Source: a virus (Duplodnaviria; Heunggongvirae; Uroviricota; Caudoviricetes). Taken from it: a DNA stretch of 18,681 bases. Location of the stretch: the IMG/VR virus record IMGVR_UViG_3300025575_000276; one strand, written 5' to 3'. The notes under the pieces are model-generated. The model was not told where the DNA came from and did no database searches. It was given only the letters and a program-made list of their open reading frames with translations. Positions 213 to 9,843 of this stretch are shown in pieces. Both the position numbers and the translations under genes were made by a program. Positions within the stretch are counted from its first letter, which is position 1, and the number at the start of each line of letters is the position of its first letter.

Positions 213-1358
213 ATGAAAACATTATATGGCCTTACCAAAGAAGGCAAAGTAAAAATTGTAAACGTCTACTCAGACGGTGCTCACATGGTTGTTGAATCAG
301 GTAGGTATGGAGGAAAACTTGTTACCCATGACAAGGTGTGTAAGGAAAAGAACACCGGAAGAGCTAACGTCGTTAGTGCGGAAGAACAGGCTAAACTAGA
401 GGTGTCTAGGGAGATCAAGAAGAAGATCGAACAGGACTTCTATGTTGAGATCCCGGCAGCAATCGAAGGCAACCTAACCCTTATTGAGGAATTCCTTGGT
501 GAGAATATTGACAAGTCTTCAAGTCCGATGTTGGCCGAGACCTACGAGGACTTTAAACACAAGGTTGACTACTCTCAAGGAATTCTTGAATCAGAAAAAC
601 TTGATGGGAACAGGTGTACCTTAACTGCGTTCAATGGAGTTATTTCCTTGAAGTCTCGAAAAGGTAAAGCTATCACGACCATGAGTCATATCGAGAAGCA
701 AGCCATGCAAATCCACATGAACTCAAAGTTGAACTTCATATTGGATGGTGAACTTTACAACCACAATACTGACGATGATCAGTTTGAAATGCTCCAGTCA
801 GCAGTAAAGAAGTACCATGCAGGTGTATCAGAACTTGTTGAACTTCATGTCTACGATATGATCTTCGACAAACCTGTTGCTGCTGTTTCCCGGTATAACT
901 ACTACAAGGAGTTCCTTACTAAGTTCGGAACTTCCCACATCTTTGCTCACAAGCAATATGTTGTACACAGTGAGCAGGAAATGATGGATCTATTCCGGTC
1001 ATTTACTGCAAATGGTTTTGAGGGAGCTGTACTTAGAATGCCAGGTGCATTTTATGAGAACAATAGAACTCAATCGATGCTGAAAGTAAAGGAGATGCAG
1101 GACGATGAGTTTAAGATCCTTGATGTTATTCCAATGGAGTCTCGTCCTGAATTTGCTCGGGTTGTCTTATGCACTGCTGATGGGAGGTCTTTCAAAGCCA
1201 CTCCTAAATGTTCAGAACCTCAGAAGATCGAGATGCTCAAAAACCGTGAACAGTATCTTGGAAAGGTTGGAACCGTTCAGTTCTTCAGTAAAACGAAGAA
1301 TAACATTCCAAGGTTCCCTGTATTCAAAGGACTCAGAGAACTCTCAGATTTGAACTAA
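213..1358 (+). CDS. lig: ATP-dependent DNA ligase (phage type) with an N-terminal extension
   Basis: Motif I EKLDGNR (KxDGxR), motif III FILDGELY, IIIa LHVYDM, IV GFEGAVLR, V MLKVK, and an OB-fold tail ending GTVQFF...PRFPVF. Confidence 0.93.
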   Translation: MKTLYGLTKEGKVKIVNVYSDGAHMVVESGRYGGKLVTHDKVCKEKNTGRANVVSAEEQAKLEVSREIKKKIEQDFYVEIPAAIEGNLTLIEEFLGENIDKSSSPMLAETYEDFKHKVDYSQGILESEKLDGNRCTLTAFNGVISLKSRKGKAITTMSHIEKQAMQIHMNSKLNFILDGELYNHNTDDDQFEMLQSAVKKYHAGVSELVELHVYDMIFDKPVAAVSRYNYYKEFLTKFGTSHIFAHKQYVVHSEQEMMDLFRSFTANGFEGAVLRMPGAFYENNRTQSMLKVKEMQDDEFKILDVIPMESRPEFARVVLCTADGRSFKATPKCSEPQKIEMLKNREQYLGKVGTVQFFSKTKNNIPRFPVFKGLRELSDLN

Positions 1359-1360
1359 CT

Positions 1361-1933
1361 ATGGAAAGAAAGTTCAGTCCAAACGGAGGGCAGATAACCG
1401 CAGCTCAAAACCTGTTTATTGCAATGGCATTCAATCAGGTTGCACAAGAAGCATTTGAGAAGTTCGAGACTCAAATACTTTCCACTGGTGAGTACCACTA
1501 TTCAGATAGGTGTTATGATCCAAAATACGCAGGAATGCAGGATCTTCCAGAGGACAGAATCATTAGGAAGGTAAGTGACACTTGTCAGATGAAGGGCCTT
1601 ATGAACCTTGGGAAACCAGAGTACGAAGGATCTGATTGTGAAAAGTATTACAAAGAACTAGGCAGATTAGCTTCCAATGCAGGTTTTGTTAAAGCTGAAA
1701 ATGGTGGTGCATCAGCAAGTTATGATGTAACAAAGTGTGAGCGAATTCTATTCAATGAAACAAAGGAAATTCATAAGATTGATGATGAAATTCTTTGCAG
1801 TAATATGGAAGTTAGGAAAAAGGTTTTAGACTTACTACTTAGCCTGTTTGCGAACCTTGTACAAGAACGTGACATGGAGTATGCAAAACGCAAGTACTTT
1901 AATGAACGAATGAACCCAGTTAAAGAAGGTTAA
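1361..1933 (+). CDS. Hypothetical protein (190 aa)
   Basis: Starts 2 nt after the ligase stop and has the same codon style. No recognisable motif. Confidence 0.8.
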   Translation: MERKFSPNGGQITAAQNLFIAMAFNQVAQEAFEKFETQILSTGEYHYSDRCYDPKYAGMQDLPEDRIIRKVSDTCQMKGLMNLGKPEYEGSDCEKYYKELGRLASNAGFVKAENGGASASYDVTKCERILFNETKEIHKIDDEILCSNMEVRKKVLDLLLSLFANLVQERDMEYAKRKYFNERMNPVKEG

Positions 1934-1984
1934 CTGACGAGACTCTTAATGAGCGAAACTCCCTAGAAATAGGGAGTCTTAACC
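1928..1984 (+). ncRNA. Type I hammerhead ribozyme
   Basis: Stem I GGTTAA (1928-33) pairs with TTAACC (1979-84). Core CTGACGA (1934-40). Stem II is G-A-CTC-TTAAT-GAG-C (1941-54, G-C closing pair, bulged A). GAAA (1955-58). Stem III CTCCCTA-GAAA-TAGGGAG (1959-76) plus the A1958-T1977 pair. Cleavage triplet GTC (1976-78). All core nucleotides are present in the correct order. Confidence 0.88.
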
Positions 1985-1996
1985 AAATAATTTGAA

Positions 1997-2233
1997 ATGA
2001 ATAAATCCAACAAGATAAATGATGCGGAACAAGAAAGGATGTGTGCCTTGTGCGAGACGTACATTATCGAAGGTTCTAGTAACTCCTCAATGTTTTTATG
2101 CGAGGGCAGGTATTGTGAGTCTGCTTATGATCTGTTGGTTGAAGAGCAACCTACTTTACTTGAGTCTATTACCTACAAACTAAACCTAATCTTAAAATAT
2201 TTATGGCCGTTAAAACTAAAAAAGACGAACTAG
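1997..2233 (+). CDS. Small Cys-containing hypothetical protein (78 aa)
   Basis: ORF follows the ribozyme. Contains CxxC (CALC) and CxxxxC (CEGRYC). Overlaps the next ORF. Confidence 0.65.
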   Translation: MNKSNKINDAEQERMCALCETYIIEGSSNSSMFLCEGRYCESAYDLLVEEQPTLLESITYKLNLILKYLWPLKLKKTN

Positions 2234-2514
2234 TTCTGATTGCATCTATAATGTCTTACCACATTGGAGATGCATTATTTGTAAAACACCAAATGCACTT
2301 CATTGATTCCCATGAAATCATCGTTGGATGGGCAAGGGAATTCCAGAAGATACACAAGAAAACCAACTGGGACTTTATCTTCGACCAAGAGAATACAAAG
2401 ATCCAGCCACTCTCCAAGGCATATAGTGACGATGTTATTATAACTTGGGATGAAGTTATCGAAGACTACATTTATTATAAACTTGAAAATTTTAACAATG
2501 ATACTAAAAGTTAA
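2203..2514 (+). CDS. Hypothetical protein (103 aa)
   Basis: Overlaps neighbours on both sides in the co-directional run. No motif recognised. Confidence 0.65.
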   Translation: MAVKTKKDELVLIASIMSYHIGDALFVKHQMHFIDSHEIIVGWAREFQKIHKKTNWDFIFDQENTKIQPLSKAYSDDVIITWDEVIEDYIYYKLENFNNDTKS

Positions 2515-2932
2515 TGCTGAAGAATTGGCAAGAAGCCTAGCTCTTATGGACATGGCACTTGATGAGGTGCCTTGTGAAGTTCACGGAACTGCTGACTTCG
2601 AATGGTACACTTCCCTTTACGACAAGTTCTTTTCAGTCATAATAGAACATGCTCCTGAACTTGAACCTAAAGTTGAGAGACCAAATCATCGTAGAATGAG
2701 CATGTTGGAGTGGATTGAAGAATTTAACCCATGTACTGATGATGAGGGTGGATTAAGAGAGTTCACTTCTGAAATGTTGGATATGGGATCTCTTCATAAA
2801 GACTCAAAGAGAGTCTGGACAAGATATCGGAGAGATAACATTTTCTATGTTACCACTGGTAGGCACCGTTTATTCGCTTACTGTTACTATGTTACTGAGA
2901 AAGAGTTTGAAGAAGATATTTTAATAAATTAA
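2498..2932 (+). CDS. Hypothetical phage protein; C-terminal domain paralogous to the N-terminus of 3109-3825
   Basis: Likely start is ATG 2498 (in frame with the track ORF at 2450). Contains EWIEEFNP..DDEG..REF...RVWTR...G.H...YYVTEKEFE. Confidence 0.75.
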   Translation: MILKVNAEELARSLALMDMALDEVPCEVHGTADFEWYTSLYDKFFSVIIEHAPELEPKVERPNHRRMSMLEWIEEFNPCTDDEGGLREFTSEMLDMGSLHKDSKRVWTRYRRDNIFYVTTGRHRLFAYCYYVTEKEFEEDILIN

Positions 2933-2957
2933 ACCAACCAAAACAACAGAATAATCT

Positions 2958-3131
2958 ATGGAAGAAGACTATCTATTTACTATCGGAGTTGACGGATGGA
3001 CAAGGCTAGATGAGAGAAAACGGATCATCGAATTTCTATCACAAGGCTCCTGTCATACTCCAAGACAATACAGAAAATTAAGTACAAACGATTTACAAAT
3101 AATGTATAATGAGTACACAGAAAGAGATTAA
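2958..3131 (+). CDS. Small hypothetical protein (57 aa), not in the ORF track
   Basis: ATG 2958 to TAA 3129-31: MEEDYLFTIGVDGWTRLDERKRIIEFLSQGSCHTPRQYRKLSTNDLQIMYNEYTERD. It fills the otherwise empty gap, has an A-rich leader and overlaps the next start. Confidence 0.5.
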   Translation: MEEDYLFTIGVDGWTRLDERKRIIEFLSQGSCHTPRQYRKLSTNDLQIMYNEYTERD

Positions 3132-3825
3132 AGCAGTAGAAGAAACCCGGTTAGTTACACTAACCTTCGATGAGTGGGTGGAGAAGTATAAACCAATACT
3201 GGATGATGAAGGTTGTCCGAGGGCGTTTGAAACTTACGGTGCAGACTTTGTTCAAGTAAAAACACATCCTGTGAATCGGGTCTGGACAAGACTAAATTGT
3301 GATGGGAGTATGCCCATTGCAAATGGATGGCACTTTGTTAACCGGGATGTATACTTTCTCACAGAAGTTCCTTTCGAGAAAGGTGAAGAGATTGAAGTAA
3401 AGGATGATTTTGAACTGACAGAAGATGAAAAACTTGCAGAGTTCATCAATAACATGGATTGGGGCGGTACAGAAATATTCCCTAATGAGGAGAATGGATT
3501 ACCAACTACTCAGCAATTGGGGTTTAACTACCGTGTCTTTGATACTCACAGTGATGATGGTCACGACATCCTGGTAGAAGATGGTGGAGTTGCCAGTACC
3601 CACAATGCAGGTGAGTATATGCTCCTAACTCTTTACAAAGGCAGAATAAACCTTGATTCTGACATGGAAGATATTTGGACTGCATTAGGAGAAAATGACC
3701 ATGTTTACCTTCAGGAATTCTCTCTTGAGGCTCCGTTAAAGGAAATGGTGGAGTACGCTCTTGACTGGCTTGTAATGGGTTGTATTAGTGAACTTAAAGA
3801 GAAAAAAGAAAATGAAAAAGAATAA
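3109..3825 (+). CDS. Acidic two-domain hypothetical phage protein (238 aa)
   Basis: N-terminal domain EWVEKYKP..DDEG..RAFETYG...RVWTR...NGWHFVNR..YFLTEVPFE, followed by an acidic C-terminal domain. Confidence 0.8.
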   Translation: MSTQKEIKAVEETRLVTLTFDEWVEKYKPILDDEGCPRAFETYGADFVQVKTHPVNRVWTRLNCDGSMPIANGWHFVNRDVYFLTEVPFEKGEEIEVKDDFELTEDEKLAEFINNMDWGGTEIFPNEENGLPTTQQLGFNYRVFDTHSDDGHDILVEDGGVASTHNAGEYMLLTLYKGRINLDSDMEDIWTALGENDHVYLQEFSLEAPLKEMVEYALDWLVMGCISELKEKKENEKE

Positions 3826-4300
3826 TGCAGGTACAGAGGAAGTCATTGATATATTCCTCTCTGAAGAAAAGTTCCCTATTGCTTTTAAAGCAAAGGTCGA
3901 TGAATTAGTCGGGCAGGGATGGGAAGAAGCTGAGGCAAGGGAATGGATACCAAAGGTTACCTTCCAAATGGAACTTTACTACTCCGTAGATCAAGGATTA
4001 TTTATGGTTGAGGCTGAGGCCGTAGAGTCAATTGCAATCTTCAATCCTTACTCTGGTGATGAACTGGAAGAGTGCGAAGATTCAATCATTGAACAAGCTG
4101 ATTCCAATTATTACTGTTGCCCTAAATGTGGGTCAACTGATGTCCATATAAAAGCATGGGTTGGTTTAAACACCAGTAAGTATATTGGGACTGCTGAGGA
4201 AGAACGTATCTGGTGTCCCCATTGTGAAAGACATTTTGAACCTGTAACAGTTGAAGAGTTTAAAACTGACGGACCAACGGAGGAGGAAGGAGAAGAATAA
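3812..4300 (+). CDS. Hypothetical protein with C-terminal Zn-ribbon
   Basis: Likely start is ATG 3812. C-terminal CPKCGS...WCPHC pair. Its stop overlaps the next start (TAATG). Confidence 0.8.
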   Translation: MKKNNAGTEEVIDIFLSEEKFPIAFKAKVDELVGQGWEEAEAREWIPKVTFQMELYYSVDQGLFMVEAEAVESIAIFNPYSGDELEECEDSIIEQADSNYYCCPKCGSTDVHIKAWVGLNTSKYIGTAEEERIWCPHCERHFEPVTVEEFKTDGPTEEEGEE

Positions 4301-4890
4301 TGGCAACATACCTTGTGTACGACACGGAGACAACCGGGAAAATCCCCAAACACATCAAAACACTATACTCAAATAACATCCATGAGATCCCGAGACTAAT
4401 TCAGTTAGCTTGGGTTCTCTACGATGAGAAAGGGGTGGCTATTAATAAAAGGTGTGAACTGATTAAACCTAATGGGTGGACCATGCCAACAGAGAAGTTC
4501 TGGATCGACAATGGTTACTCCCATGAAAAGAACCTGAAGTTTGGAATTCCAATTGAGTACATCCTTCCTGACTTTGCAGACAAGATCCTGAAAGCAGACT
4601 ACCTTGTTTCTCATAACATGTGGTTTGATGAGAAAATCATGGCAGCAGAGTTTATAAGGCTCAATGCCGTAGTTGGTAAGAAGATCGACAAACTCTGCAC
4701 AAAAGAAATGAGTACTGACTTCTGTAAACTACCTGGTAACTATGGCAAGTATAAGTGGCCAACACTTACTGAACTCCACACAAAACTGTTTGGAGTTGGG
4801 TTCGATGGCGCTCACGATGCCTTGGCAGACGTTGAGGCTTGTGCTAGGTCTCTATTCCAATTGAAAAATCTGGGAATAATCCCCCAATAA
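4300..4890 (+). CDS. DEDDh 3'-5' exonuclease (DnaQ / Pol III epsilon-like)
   Basis: ExoI YDTETTG, ExoII SHNMWFD, ExoIII HDALAD. Confidence 0.9.
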   Translation: MATYLVYDTETTGKIPKHIKTLYSNNIHEIPRLIQLAWVLYDEKGVAINKRCELIKPNGWTMPTEKFWIDNGYSHEKNLKFGIPIEYILPDFADKILKADYLVSHNMWFDEKIMAAEFIRLNAVVGKKIDKLCTKEMSTDFCKLPGNYGKYKWPTLTELHTKLFGVGFDGAHDALADVEACARSLFQLKNLGIIPQ

Positions 4891-4902
4891 AAAGTATATT
4901 GT

Positions 4903-4948
4903 TACTACGTTTTAATGTGTATGCAATCATTAAAACGTAGTATCTTTG
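4903..4948 (+). promoter_or_regulatory. Perfect 15-bp inverted repeat overlapping a Bacteroidota-type -7 promoter element upstream of nrdJ
   Basis: TACTACGTTTTAATG (4903-17) and CATTAAAACGTAGTA (4928-42), 10-nt spacer. TATCTTTG at 4941-48 matches the TAnnTTTG consensus. No clear -33 TTTG. Confidence 0.65.
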
Positions 4949-4993
4949 TACTTCGTAATCACGAATTTTAATACTACTATTTACTTTTTATAA

Positions 4994-7444
4994 ATGAAAC
5001 AATCGACTAACGTAGAGGCGATTAAAATCCCTCTTAACGACTTCTCTATGGAAGTCTTTGATCAGACCTATAGCCATAAAGGTGAAAGTGTTGCAGGTAT
5101 GTGGGGCAGAGTAGCTGGATCCCTTGCTGCATCAGAGAAAGACAGGAAAAAGTGGGAACTTCAGTTCTTTAACTTATTACTGGATTTTAAAGCTATCCTT
5201 GGAGGTAGAATACTCAGCAACGCTGGCGCAGGATATGAGAGCACTACCCTACTCAACTGCTTTGCAGATGGTGTTCCCGGCAAAGATAAAGACTCAATGG
5301 AAGGAATACTTCGAGCATTGAGGCATCAAGCTCTCATCCTTAAATCTGAAGGTGGTTATGGAATGTGTGCAGATGTCCTTCGACCTCGTGGTGGGTACAT
5401 TGCCGGCATAGGAAGTACAACTCCCGGTGCTGTAAAGATGCTTGAAATGTGGAACACACAGTCTGTAGTTATTACAGAAGGATCTGGTATGGAGTCAGAC
5501 AAGGGTAAGAAGAAGAATAGAAAAGGTGCTCAAATGTTCACTATGTCTGTCCATCATCCTGATATTGAAGAGTTCATAACAGCTAAACAAACAGCAGGGA
5601 GATTGACTAAATGCAATATGTCAGCGTTGATCACCGATCAGTTTATGAATGCCGTACAACAGGACCTAGATTGGATACTGTACTATCCTTCCTTTGAAAC
5701 ACAAAAAGAACTTTATAAGGAGGAATGGGATGGGAATTGGGATCACTGGGAAGAAGTTGGAGGAAAATATGACACTTATAAAACCCTTAAAGCAAGGGCA
5801 CTTTATGATTTGATTATGTCTGCAACTTACAATCGCAATGAACCCGGAGTGATATTCATTGACCTTATTAATAGGATGAACAATCTTACTGAGATTGAAT
5901 TCATTAATACAACAAATCCATGTGGAGAAGTACCATTGCCAGTTGGAGGGGCCTGTCTACTTGGGTCGATAAACTGTACTCAGTACGTTCTTCCAGACCT
6001 AAGTGATTGGGACTTCGTAAAATTAAATAGGGATGTTCCGACTCTAGTAAGGATGGCAGATAATGTTATTGACATTACCTACTTACCTTTACCTGAGCAA
6101 ATCATTGAGGCCAAAAATAAACGAAGACTTGGCCTTGGTAATTTAGGAGTGGGGTCTGCATTGATGATGATGAAAGTCAGATATGGTTCGGAGAAGGGTT
6201 GCCAGTTAGCAAGTGAGTTTGAAAACATGTACGCCAATTTGTGCTACCAAGCATCCGCTTTACTGGCCAAAGAGAAAGGAGCTTTCCCATTGTGGAATTA
6301 TGAAAACTTCCTTAAAGGAGGTTACCATAAGATCCTTTCTAAAGAAACAATGGAATTGATTAAGTTACATGGATTACGTAACTCTCATTTACTTGCATTT
6401 GCTCCTAATGGTAATACTGGCATACTGGCCAATTGTGTGTCTGGCGGTTGCGAACCTGTATTCATGCCGGAGTATATTCGCACATCAGCAGTTGAAGTTT
6501 TACCTAAAGGTATACCTACTTATCCGTTATGGCCTACCATTGGTAGAGAAGGAGACGTTAATGTACATCTCTGGGAGACTGAAAATGGAACTCTTTATAA
6601 ATGGGACAAGGACCGGGGATATACAAAGGAGACTCTAGTTGAAGATTATGCTGTCCGAGTACTCAAGGCTCGTGGTGAGTGGGATCCAAAAGCTGATTGG
6701 GCTGCAACAACAACTACTCTTACGGTAACTGACCACATCAACATGTTAAAGGCGATTGCTCCTTATGTTGATCAGGCGATAAGTAAGACTATCAACTTAC
6801 CAAATGATTACCCTTATGAAGATTTCAAAAACATGTACATGGATGCATGGGAATCAGGGGTAATTAAAGGACTAACTTCTTACCGTGAAGGGACAATGAC
6901 AGCAGTTCTAAAGGCTGTTGATACACCCGATGTGCCTTGTACTACTAATACCAAGAAGAGACCTAAGAAGGTACCTTGCGACATAAACTCCATCAAAGTA
7001 AAAGGAGAGGATTGGATAGTACTGGTAGGATTGGATGAGGGAAGGCCGTTTGAGGTGTTCGCATTTCAACCAGTAGATATCTCACTATCTAAATCCATTA
7101 CAAAAGGAACACTTGTAAAAACTGAAAAGGGGTACGATCTGGTTACAGATACTATCACTATTCGAAACATTGCAAAGCATTTCCTCTCTGACGAAGAGCA
7201 AGCACTGACCCGAATGATTAGTGTCCTCGGACTTAAGCAAGGAACAGACATTGCATTCATCGTGGAACAACTTAATAAGGTTCCGGGTAATGTTACATCT
7301 TTCGCCAGAGCTATCAGTAGAACGCTTGCCAAATATATTGGTGCTACCGACACTGGGGAATTATGCCCTACCTGTGGGAAAAAGTTGGTACGAGAAGCCG
7401 GTTGCACCGGATGTAAAAACTGCGGTTACTCCAAGTGTGGGTAA
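4994..7444 (+). CDS. nrdJ: Class II adenosylcobalamin-dependent ribonucleotide reductase with C-terminal TSCPD-like and Zn-ribbon domain
   Basis: GGRILSNAG, LLNCF, TNPCGE, GACLLGSIN, RRLGLG, APNGNTG...GCEP, DQAISKTINLP, and C-terminal CPTCG...CTGCKNCGYSKCG. No beta subunit gene nearby. No intein seen. Confidence 0.95.
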   Translation: MKQSTNVEAIKIPLNDFSMEVFDQTYSHKGESVAGMWGRVAGSLAASEKDRKKWELQFFNLLLDFKAILGGRILSNAGAGYESTTLLNCFADGVPGKDKDSMEGILRALRHQALILKSEGGYGMCADVLRPRGGYIAGIGSTTPGAVKMLEMWNTQSVVITEGSGMESDKGKKKNRKGAQMFTMSVHHPDIEEFITAKQTAGRLTKCNMSALITDQFMNAVQQDLDWILYYPSFETQKELYKEEWDGNWDHWEEVGGKYDTYKTLKARALYDLIMSATYNRNEPGVIFIDLINRMNNLTEIEFINTTNPCGEVPLPVGGACLLGSINCTQYVLPDLSDWDFVKLNRDVPTLVRMADNVIDITYLPLPEQIIEAKNKRRLGLGNLGVGSALMMMKVRYGSEKGCQLASEFENMYANLCYQASALLAKEKGAFPLWNYENFLKGGYHKILSKETMELIKLHGLRNSHLLAFAPNGNTGILANCVSGGCEPVFMPEYIRTSAVEVLPKGIPTYPLWPTIGREGDVNVHLWETENGTLYKWDKDRGYTKETLVEDYAVRVLKARGEWDPKADWAATTTTLTVTDHINMLKAIAPYVDQAISKTINLPNDYPYEDFKNMYMDAWESGVIKGLTSYREGTMTAVLKAVDTPDVPCTTNTKKRPKKVPCDINSIKVKGEDWIVLVGLDEGRPFEVFAFQPVDISLSKSITKGTLVKTEKGYDLVTDTITIRNIAKHFLSDEEQALTRMISVLGLKQGTDIAFIVEQLNKVPGNVTSFARAISRTLAKYIGATDTGELCPTCGKKLVREAGCTGCKNCGYSKCG

Positions 7445-7464
7445 TCCTATAATTTGACAATAAC

Positions 7465-7527
7465 ATTCCCTCTTAGAGGGGATTTTGAAAGGTTGATCAA
7501 GGGGATGAGTGGTTACTTCCCCTTTTT
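7465..7527 (+). terminator. Tandem intrinsic terminator-like hairpins after nrdJ
   Basis: Hairpin 1 is ATTCCCTC-TTA-GAGGGGAT (7465-83) followed by TTT. Hairpin 2 is AGGGGA(TG)AGT-GGTT-ACTTCCCCT (7500-23) followed by TTTT. Confidence 0.65.
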
Positions 7528-7552
7528 CTTCTAAAATATAATCTATCAATAA

Positions 7553-7960
7553 ATGAGTAAAAAACTAACAGAAATAATCAACTTCAGAAAACTCGATGCT
7601 CAAATAATGACTCTCGTTAAAATGACTGACAATCCAAAGAATCATACGAAAATGGACGTTAAGAATGCATACGAGATACTTGATTTCATTGTAGAAGTTA
7701 AGAATTATATAATTGAGAACGAAGGAAAAACAGAAGTAGAGATGTTTCCATTTGTATACGCAGATCACCTTTATCAACCTGAGTTTGATGAAGGTCAACC
7801 GGGAAAAGTAACAGAGTCCGATAAAGTCATACCCCAAATTTTATTTTGGGAAAACTCCGAGACCTGCCAGGCAAAGTTTCCCAACACTTTAATACTAATT
7901 TACAGGAAGGAAGAAGTTCCTCCTAATTATATTGTAATCGATTCTACAGAGGATCAATAA
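7553..7960 (+). CDS. Hypothetical protein (135 aa)
   Basis: ORF with an A/T-rich leader in the co-directional run. No motif recognised. Confidence 0.75.
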   Translation: MSKKLTEIINFRKLDAQIMTLVKMTDNPKNHTKMDVKNAYEILDFIVEVKNYIIENEGKTEVEMFPFVYADHLYQPEFDEGQPGKVTESDKVIPQILFWENSETCQAKFPNTLILIYRKEEVPPNYIVIDSTEDQ

Positions 7961-7972
7961 AACCAGAGACAA

Positions 7973-8269
7973 ATGACAGATAAGAAAGCTGGCCGGGTAA
8001 TCAGTATGGGGCCAACAAAACCTGAACCCAAACAAAAAGAGGTTCCAGTAGAAGTAATCGAGGAAACCATCGAAGTTCCTCTATTAGAAGGACAGTCCAT
8101 CATGTATGTGCTAGATCCAAGTGCTATTGAAACTATTGAAGACGTAGCAATAATTTTGGATGGGTTACACATTGGATTACTTCCGGACAATTTTAATTCC
8201 CTTGATGGAAGAGTACAACAACTCTTTAGAAGGGCAGTAGTAGAAACAATACCTAAATCAAATAACTAA
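7973..8269 (+). CDS. Hypothetical protein (98 aa)
   Basis: Stop abuts the next ATG (TAAATG). Confidence 0.75.
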   Translation: MTDKKAGRVISMGPTKPEPKQKEVPVEVIEETIEVPLLEGQSIMYVLDPSAIETIEDVAIILDGLHIGLLPDNFNSLDGRVQQLFRRAVVETIPKSNN

Positions 8270-8800
8270 ATGGACAAAACCCAATTTATCCAATTTATCC
8301 GTAGAAACGGATGCAGAGTAGATGCAACAAAGCTACTCGCTATGCTTGATCAGGTGATCGAAGCAAACTTCAACATTGATGAAGAACTTATTGAATCTCC
8401 GGAAGTGGAGATTTCTGTTGAAGATTTGGAGACGATTGATCCTCCCACAGCAGACGACATCGAAGGTTTCCCAAGAGACAAGTTTACACCCACTGCTGAG
8501 AACCTGATACCAATTGAACCTCTTACTGAAGAAGAGATTCAGAGTATTAACAATATCGTGAAGACAAGGGAAGAAGTCGATCCTGAACCAAAGGAAGGTA
8601 TTATCAAGTTAGGTCACGAACATATTTTGAACAAGGTCAATTATACTGGAGGAAAAGAGTTTGCAGCCAACTTTGCTGATATTTCTCCAACTGGGCAGAA
8701 TCCAAGCCCATTTAAAGATCATGCCTCATTAGGTGTTACTTTAATACCTGAAGTAGTCCCAGAGAAAATGGATGAACCAGTTGCAGAAATAGCGGAGTAA
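8270..8800 (+). CDS. Acidic, probably largely disordered hypothetical protein (176 aa)
   Basis: Glu/Asp/Pro-rich after a short helical N-terminus. Followed by a strong terminator. Confidence 0.75.
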   Translation: MDKTQFIQFIRRNGCRVDATKLLAMLDQVIEANFNIDEELIESPEVEISVEDLETIDPPTADDIEGFPRDKFTPTAENLIPIEPLTEEEIQSINNIVKTREEVDPEPKEGIIKLGHEHILNKVNYTGGKEFAANFADISPTGQNPSPFKDHASLGVTLIPEVVPEKMDEPVAEIAE

Positions 8801-8823
8801 TAAAATTAAGGTGTAAACAAACG

Positions 8824-8861
8824 GCCCCCTGTAGCAATCGTCTACAGGGGGCTTTTTTTTT
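8824..8861. terminator. Intrinsic terminator between convergent genes, probably bidirectional
   Basis: 11-bp perfect stem GCCCCCTGTAG-CAATCGT-CTACAGGGGGC followed by 9 T. The T run overlaps the stop codon of the minus-strand nuclease gene. Confidence 0.88.
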
Positions 8862-9843
8862 AGTTAAGTTGGGCAGTGCTGTAGATCTGCCCTCTATTTG
8901 CTTCAAGGTAATTGTATATAAGCATAGCATCGTTGTAGTGATCCATAGGATTGATCTCAATAGTTTCAAACATACCTGTGTTCCTGTTACCCCAAAGAAG
9001 GAAGTTACTACCAAGTCCATAACCGGGATACAACTGGAGTACCATTAATTGATATAGGCAAAGTTGTAGTTGGTAATGGGTGATCGAGTGGTCCTTTACG
9101 TGAGGGATGATAAACTTGAACTTACCATAACTCTTATCCTCTAGGGAACCTGGTTTATGTTTATTGGTTTTGTAATCGAGGATGTGAATAAGTTTCCTCT
9201 GGTGATCAATCAACACAAGATCTGCTTGGCCAGCGATAAGCTCACACAAATGAAGTAAGGGTTCTGTGAAAACTTCGAAGCAAGCGAACTTGGGGAAATA
9301 ATTATTAAGTAAGTCCTGTAGGAAGTACTGAATAATTGGATGGTCAAGTTGGAACCTATCTCTACCATAATTATAGGTATCGATTGCAGGAAGGTTTCTA
9401 TTCTTTGCTCCATGTTCAAAAATTAAATGTGCCATCGAACCGTAAGTTGTTCCGGTAACATTTGTAATTTTCCAAGCTCTAAGAATTCTCTCTTGACGTT
9501 CTAATATCGAAATAAGATTCCAATTGCTTACATCAAGGTTGTCACATGTGTAATAATCCTTATTTGCGCATTGGAAGGATTTCAAGTTTTCATTAAAGGG
9601 CTCACACAACACACTTAAAAGTGTGGTGACAGAAATGACAGGTGTAAGAGTACTTCTCTTGAAATAAATGTGCTGTGAATCATTATACCAAAGATTTCCT
9701 GCATTCTTAAACTCAGGAGCAGTTTCTTTTGGGTCTAATCGATCCGGTAGGGTTATACCCTTTATTTTTGGTATTTGTGAATTAAGTTTACCTAATAATA
9801 TAGGTAAGGGAGTCTCTTCAATGATAGTAGATCTTAACAACAT
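8860..9843 (-). CDS. PD-(D/E)xK nuclease (RecB/Cas4-like exonuclease family)
   Basis: ISVTTLL, G..YGSMAH..FE, TE....IAGQADLV...ILDYKTNK, YQLQLCLYQL. No CRISPR array in the window. Confidence 0.88.
   Translation of the reverse strand: MLLRSTIIEETPLPILLGKLNSQIPKIKGITLPDRLDPKETAPEFKNAGNLWYNDSQHIYFKRSTLTPVISVTTLLSVLCEPFNENLKSFQCANKDYYTCDNLDVSNWNLISILERQERILRAWKITNVTGTTYGSMAHLIFEHGAKNRNLPAIDTYNYGRDRFQLDHPIIQYFLQDLLNNYFPKFACFEVFTEPLLHLCELIAGQADLVLIDHQRKLIHILDYKTNKHKPGSLEDKSYGKFKFIIPHVKDHSITHYQLQLCLYQLMVLQLYPGYGLGSNFLLWGNRNTGMFETIEINPMDHYNDAMLIYNYLEANRGQIYSTAQLN

Follow-up and report, generated by a model that had tools for sequence, protein, structure and literature searches.

A type I hammerhead ribozyme built on the stop codon of an upstream gene in a phage operon

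The window examined here is the whole stretch of DNA analysed, 18,681 nucleotides from a member of the Caudoviricetes (IMG/VR record IMGVR_UViG_3300025575_000276). Its plus strand carries all of the genes from 213 to 8800. These begin with ligase, ORF190, a hammerhead, ORF78 and ORF103, in that order; several small ORFs which belong to no family lie between the ribozyme and an exonuclease gene, and a ribonucleotide reductase gene is located beyond it (Table 1). ORF190 is part of an unnamed family of 53 clusters at 50% identity (homologues P0004–P0055) whose neighbours are KorB-like, HTH, integrase and DUF6876 genes, which marks it as a mobile-element protein. A search of the protein atlas with ORF190 yielded no usable match, and blastn against phage records gave weak ribonucleotide reductase matches only. 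Start codons (for example those at 213, 1361, 4994 and 10278) are almost devoid of Shine-Dalgarno sequences and follow A/T-rich leaders which, together with a GC content of 36%, suggests a Bacteroidota-like host. On the minus strand a weak match to His_leader at 8816–8933 (29 bits against a threshold of 49, E 0.31) is probably due to chance.

Table 1. Features of the hammerhead locus and its flanking genes in the window
Feature	Position	Strand	Remarks	Basis
ATP-dependent DNA ligase	213–1358	+	Would head the 5' cleavage product	Pfam PF01068, PF14743; phrog_114
ORF190	1361–1933	+	190 aa; upstream gene, ends inside stem I; no family found	
Possible competing hairpin	1917–1936	+	CAGUUAA/UUAACUG, 7 bp; holds the stop codon, sequesters C3–G5	
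Unpaired A	1927	+	Immediately 5' of stem I; with A1985 fits the family signature	
Type I hammerhead ribozyme	1928–1984	+	Complete, 57 nt	Sequence reading, fold, model R2, shuffle test
Stem I, 5' strand	1928–1933	+	GGUUAA, ending in the TAA stop of ORF190	
Core C3 U4 G5 A6 C7 G8 A9	1934–1940	+	CUGACGA	Columns invariant in family alignment
Stem-loop II	1941–1954	+	4 bp; loop UUAAU 1946–1950; bulged A1942	
Core G12 A13 A14	1955–1957	+		Sequence reading
Stem III	1958–1977	+	8 bp, A1958–U1977 (A15.1–U16.1) to A1965–U1970; GAAA tetraloop 1966–1969	
Predicted scissile bond	1978–1979	+	After C17 (1978), before U1.1 (1979)	Hammerhead consensus (PMC3088659)
Stem I, 3' strand	1979–1984	+	UUAACC	Sequence reading, fold
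ORF78	1997–2233	+	Cys-rich, no family; first gene after the predicted cut	
DnaQ-like exonuclease	4300–4890	+		
Class II ribonucleotide reductase	4994–7444	+		

A sequence-only reading of this DNA had placed a type I hammerhead in a phage operon, on the coding strand and 3' of the DNA ligase gene and ORF190, with the TAA at 1931–1933 which ends the latter forming part of stem I. Upon reading 1900–2000 against the ORF list we found every one of the hammerhead elements, and the stop codon, where that reading had put them. The isolated 57-mer folds into a three-way junction (−16.7 kcal/mol, z −3.4) as both the MFE and the centroid structure. [quoted passage not shown] The consensus core of PMC3088659 is complete (1934–1940, 1955–1958 and 1977–1978), and the standard pairs adjacent to it, G1941–C1954, U1979–A1933 and A1958–U1977, are all present. 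By sequence reading stem II is composed of G1941–C1954 (10.1–11.1), C1943–G1953, U1944–A1952 and C1945–G1951, with A1942 treated as an insertion by covariance model R2 (described below). This is a single bulge rather than multiple ones, yet it weakens a helix of 4 bp, and RNAfold gives the closing G–C pair of stem II a predicted probability of only 0.2–0.4. Cleavage after C1978, as the earlier reading had also predicted, would, if the ribozyme is active, yield a downstream RNA with a 5'-OH end and 18 nt of leader, from 1979 to the ATG at 1997. There is a single hammerhead copy in the 18.7 kb of the window. No U-run comes after stem III, and a scan for sigma-70 promoters and terminators near the element revealed nothing beyond shuffle expectation.

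A relaxed descriptor, asking for 5/6 stem I pairs and 4/5 stem III pairs and tolerating one bulge in stem II, matched 1928–1984 alone in the window and had no matches in 4000 dinucleotide-preserving shuffles scanned on both strands. Model R2 is a covariance model constructed from 19 hammerheads located on other contigs, of phage and metagenome origin, the window and its syntenic relatives having been left out; it awarded the site 50.9 bits (E ~5e-14, a rough calibration), its sole match in the window. The Rfam search which the sequence-only reading had recommended called no hammerhead at gathering thresholds in the window or in 13 related loci, but a permissive search of 211 nt recovered two below threshold, the best being RF03152 RAGATH-1-hammerhead (30.1 bits against 56.3, E 0.0019 on the 211 nt) and the other the RF00163 type I hammerhead (15.4 bits against 34). 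Scores below the Rfam thresholds are what might be held in favour of a chance resemblance within AT-rich intergenic DNA, an explanation to which we attach a negligible probability. Because none of the shuffles matched, the independent model scores the site highly and the element is conserved with covariation, this is a genuine hammerhead.

Pattern scans revealed 26 contigs, viral and from marine or other metagenomes, whose type I hammerheads have the stem-loop II GACU-UAAUG-AGUC in common. A generic finder recognized 29 distinct hammerheads in those loci, often 4–6 per contig between successive small genes. For the alignment a subset of 20 members was used, members with a long stem III or a different stem II, which MAFFT misaligned, being set aside; a model-based alignment was employed as well. 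In this clean subset of 20, 99.3% of cells pair, against 25–36% in slid controls, and 12 of 15 pairs show changes on both sides; for the 35 distinct model-aligned members the values are 98.7% and 13 of 15 (perfect pairing of stem I was a selection criterion of the finder, pairing of stems II and III was not). The geometry of the family is fixed: stem I is exactly 6 bp, position 17 is C, stem II is 4 bp and its loop is a U-rich 5 nt. All 29 have A at position −1; at +1 there are 24 with A and 5 with G. The window has the same signature, with A1927, A1985, the loop UUAAU, the stop at +3 and the next ATG at +18. Hammerhead activity at physiological Mg calls for a tertiary contact between stem I and loop II; here the conserved purines at −1 (A) and +1 (A/G), unpaired and separated from the core by the six pairs of stem I, face a 4-bp stem II and suggest that a non-Watson-Crick contact may be made.

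A second subfamily, recognizable by another stem-loop II which we describe below from contig L034, numbers over 112 distinct hammerheads in IMG/VR, itself a lower bound. Rfam 15 at its gathering thresholds called no hammerhead in L008–L013 or in L008:7400–10397, the best scores being 20–25 bits to RAGATH-1-hammerhead or HH9. The present hammerhead thresholds of Rfam thus miss two abundant phage type I subfamilies. The element of the window belongs to a large and already known sort of phage hammerhead and is no new kind of element.

Close homologues of ORF190, at 99, 87 and 80% identity, are found on contigs which are syntenic with the window (ligase, ORF190, ribozyme, small ORFs, exonuclease, reductase), and all of these close syntenic contigs have the ribozyme at the same ORF190 stop codon. 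Taking the window as reference, the 87% lineage is represented by L034–L039 and the 80% lineage by L040; the orthologous elements lie at L034:3568–3628 and L040:802–862. In both lineages a U–A pair of stem III is replaced by C–G, and loop III is GAGA instead of GAAA, one GNRA for another. Their stem-loop II is wholly different, a perfect 5-bp helix (GUCUU, an 8-nt loop, AAGAC). L040 has in addition exchanged the distal pair of stem I, G–C for A–U, on both sides. Between the L034 and L040 elements there are two differences, a compensatory pair and a base in a loop. Compensatory changes thus occur in stems I, II and III and have maintained the helices among the syntenic relatives. The orthologous site therefore carries, on near-identical stems I and III, the stem-loop II modules of two separate widespread subfamilies.

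Covariation in related genomes had been proposed as a check by the sequence-only reading, and while the pairing is compensated in all three stems, the core has not been preserved in two lineages: L034–L039 and L040 have A13C, that is, GCAA where the window has GAAA, and C13 takes L034–L040 outside the consensus core. Perreault et al. 2011 counted any core change as disqualifying (PMC3088659), and mutations in the core generally abolish hammerhead activity (PMC7092961; PMC3088659). Among the matches listed, C13 occurred in 0/127 IMG/VR hammerheads with exactly the stem-loop II of L034 and L040. RNAfold pairs C13 with G8 in both, and this pairing would be expected to compete with the catalytic C3–G8 pair. 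On these grounds the L034–L040 alleles have probably lost some or all of their ribozyme activity, yet their pairing would still seem to be constrained. Since A13C is present in both sister lineages, ribozyme activity at this locus may not be under strong selection.

A search of viral contigs with ORF190 for related loci gave none. The distant ORF190 homologues which were examined (35–46% identity, in plasmid- or integrase-type neighbourhoods) have no downstream hammerhead, nor is there one at ligase-related loci of 28–34% identity. The element would thus appear to be specific to the close lineage, and a recent acquisition by these phages.

The relatives also permitted an assessment of a distal extension of stem I, AGUUA (1918–1922) with UAAUU (1988–1992), that had been suggested for the window. 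The two segments are indeed complementary there, but the 3' arm is absent in L034 and L040 and such pairing is not enriched in the family, in which the 5' and 3' flanks score 3.90 compared with 3.95 ± 0.17 for permuted partners. We have rejected the extension. A pseudoknot between loop II and the flanks was likewise rejected as a feature of the family, a member's own flanks being no more complementary than those of permuted partners.

The layout of the locus, with the ribozyme starting upon a stop codon, is not unusual among the relatives. Of 56 with a scored upstream ORF, drawn from two subfamilies, some 85–90% have the stop of that ORF between about −10 and +35 nt relative to the first base of the ribozyme, a range which opens shortly ahead of the ribozyme and closes within stem-loop II. 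Among the 29 relatives of the window's own subfamily approximately 14 stops are 2–6 nt before the ribozyme, four are in stem I (+3), four are at the UGA of the core (+7), four are in loop II (+17 or +20) and three are elsewhere. In the second subfamily 23/27 fall between −10 and +35. A start on the stop codon is the rule and not a peculiarity of this locus. The hammerhead sequence itself offers stops in all three frames (UAA of stem I, UGA of CUGA and UAAUGA of loop II), and in 27 of the 29 relatives the next start is 18–49 nt past the cut. The placement of the stops is explained equally well by compaction and by a link to translation.

We estimate at roughly 0.75 the probability that this is an active hammerhead which processes mRNA. 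The element would be transcribed as part of a plus-strand replication-module operon and, once its 57 nt have been made and are free of ribosomes, the three helices would form and the RNA would cut itself after C1978. The upstream product, the ligase–ORF190 message, would keep its stop codon and end at its 3' terminus in the compact stems II and III with a 2',3'-cyclic phosphate. The downstream product would begin with a 5'-OH and an unstructured, A-rich leader of 18 nt before the ATG at 1997. Structured 3' ends resist 3' exonucleases, and 5'-end-dependent RNases act poorly on 5'-OH ends; the two halves of the operon are for this reason likely to acquire separate stabilities, and separate translation rates. 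In a host which uses unstructured A-rich leaders, initiation at ATG 1997 may also benefit from UUAACC no longer being held in stem I. Cleavage in vivo and an effect on expression are what we infer here. Processing into transcripts of different stability has been suggested as a role of hammerheads, and the role of the thousands found in bacteria and phages is still open (PMC6765202).

Translation might be superimposed upon this processing role. From the dimensions of the ribosome one which terminates must cover stem I and the core, so that interference with folding is certain in principle. On such a reading a ribosome on the TAA at 1931–1933 would cover stem I, the core and part of stem II, and cleavage would be gated by translation. 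In a variant of it ribosomes would melt the hairpin at 1917–1936 which hides C3–G5 and so license folding, with the result that cutting reports the translation of ORF190. We regard either version as rather unlikely. Both have in their favour the position of the stop inside stem I, a geometry which would follow from established ribosome footprints, and the frequency with which stops are found near the ribozyme in the 56 relatives; the position of the stop is, however, variable among the 29, and fits genome compaction together with the three-frame stops of the hammerhead. The competing hairpin (1917–1923 with 1930–1936, −5.9 kcal/mol) is such that 1/200 shuffles folds as well, and inclusion of the native flank lowers the stem I probability from 0.9 to 0.02–0.25, the hairpin being preferred by RNAfold, which works without tertiary contacts. 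The hairpin is identical in L034 but is abolished in L040. Nor does the family treat it as a common device, for the same drop in stem I is seen with swapped flanks (0.26 native versus 0.30), competitors on the 5' side score 4.79 against 4.70 ± 0.10 with swapped flanks, and helices of at least 7 bp occur in 7.6% against 5.4 ± 2.4%. The hairpin was accordingly rejected as a design of the family, there being no enrichment over swapped flanks, and we view it as a local possibility, not design. That ribosome traffic on the last ORF190 codons decides the folding, the phage thereby cutting its operon mRNA by upstream translation, is a claim we consider more doubtful again. Were it true, cutting which depends upon upstream translation could be general for phage intergenic hammerheads, because most of the relatives also start at an upstream stop.

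One could also suppose that the element is a decaying or inactive relic, which has kept the hammerhead shape while cleavage has become weak or been lost, the stable pair of hairpins serving as a passive RNA stabilizer or spacer. The A13C change in both sister lineages, its absence from the matches listed that share their stem-loop II, the generally inactivating nature of core mutations and the predicted C13–G8 pair which would compete with C3–G8 all point this way, as does the bulge in stem II of the window. The core of the window is, on the other hand, fully canonical; the L034 and L040 elements are separated by a compensatory G–C to A–U exchange in stem I and one loop change, suggesting that pairing is still selected; and the changes between lineages in stems II and III are all compensatory. 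A relic is in our opinion decidedly unlikely. To an active, mRNA-processing hammerhead might be added a function as a cassette boundary, the ribozyme being also a junction at which small genes are gained or lost or ribozyme modules are exchanged between phages. An alignment of 1988–2200 of the window with L032, L034 and L040 indicates that ORF78 constitutes an indel of ~205 nt which begins 3–4 nt past the 3' end of the ribozyme and ends at the start of ORF103. ORF78 is missing from all three contigs, even though the 220 nt upstream and the ribozyme of L032 are identical to those of the window. The exchange of modules would be in keeping with the orthologous ribozymes having two different stem-loop II modules, which characterize two distinct and widespread subfamilies of phage hammerheads, and with the 4–6 such ribozymes which flank single small genes in other contigs. 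Opposed to this, there is a single indel event, and the far end of ORF78 has neither another ribozyme nor a repeat; we hold such a boundary function to be improbable.

The locus offers a clean, single-copy example with three natural alleles at one orthologous site: one has a canonical core and a bulged stem II, and two are A13C forms with the other stem-loop II. Together with the differing gene after the cut these alleles provide a convenient natural test set for whether cleavage matters and for its effect on the flanking genes.

The closest known counterparts are the type I hammerheads of bacteria, phages and metagenomes (PMC3088659; RF00163, clan CL00010). With these the window shares an open stem I, closed stems II and III and the full core, and further the pairs G10.1–C11.1 and A15.1–U16.1, C17 and an intergenic position on the phage coding strand (PMC3088659). 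Compared with RF00163, the subfamily of the window is distinguished by a 6-bp stem I flanked by an unpaired A and A/G, a 4-bp stem II and a 5-nt U-rich loop. Its likeness to RAGATH-1 (RF03152), by the Rfam model, consists of the GAGACU at the start of stem II, the stem III CGAAACUCCC...GGGAGUC and a stem I of 5–6 bp. Unlike the RAGATH-1 model, the window has no 5' hairpin, the region aligning to 6 unpaired nt, and its stem II is a real 4-bp helix where the model has a single pair.

Hammerheads between co-directional phage genes, as in the window, are also known from the prophages of Agrobacterium tumefaciens, Clostridium scindens and Azorhizobium caulinodans (PMC3088659). Such clustered prophage hammerheads cleaved polycistronic constructs of ~2 kb in vitro, and mRNA processing was proposed (PMC3088659). 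They form arrays, as do the relatives in L008, L009, L024 and L026, whereas that of the window is a single copy. HHphage of haloviruses HF1 and HF2 lies 13 nt before the start of an early/replication gene, compared with 18 nt in the window (PMC3088659), and a transcript 5' end maps within 3 nt of its cut site (PMC3088659). Those are archaeal viruses, and HHphage has a variant architecture and stands at the head of the transcript, while the element of the window follows an upstream ORF. [quoted passage not shown] They differ in that their setting is eukaryotic and cap-independent, in RNA genomes (PMC13725137), the window being phage DNA.

The allelic series, the A13C alleles, the subfamily signature of a 6-bp stem I with an unpaired purine on either side, and the escape of these subfamilies from the Rfam thresholds are points of some interest, none of them categorically new. 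Arrays in which 4–6 type I hammerheads occupy the gaps between small genes, one to a gap, were observed at L008:7495–10034 and L009:5342–6914 and in L024, L026 and L030. Each hammerhead of these arrays extends from the upstream stop to ~27–49 nt before an ATG preceded by a Shine-Dalgarno sequence, and some possess a long pyrimidine-rich stem III. A manA RNA (RF01745, 74 bits) is located at L006:7454–7663, in a viral contig of 184 kb which also encodes a distant homologue of the ligase.
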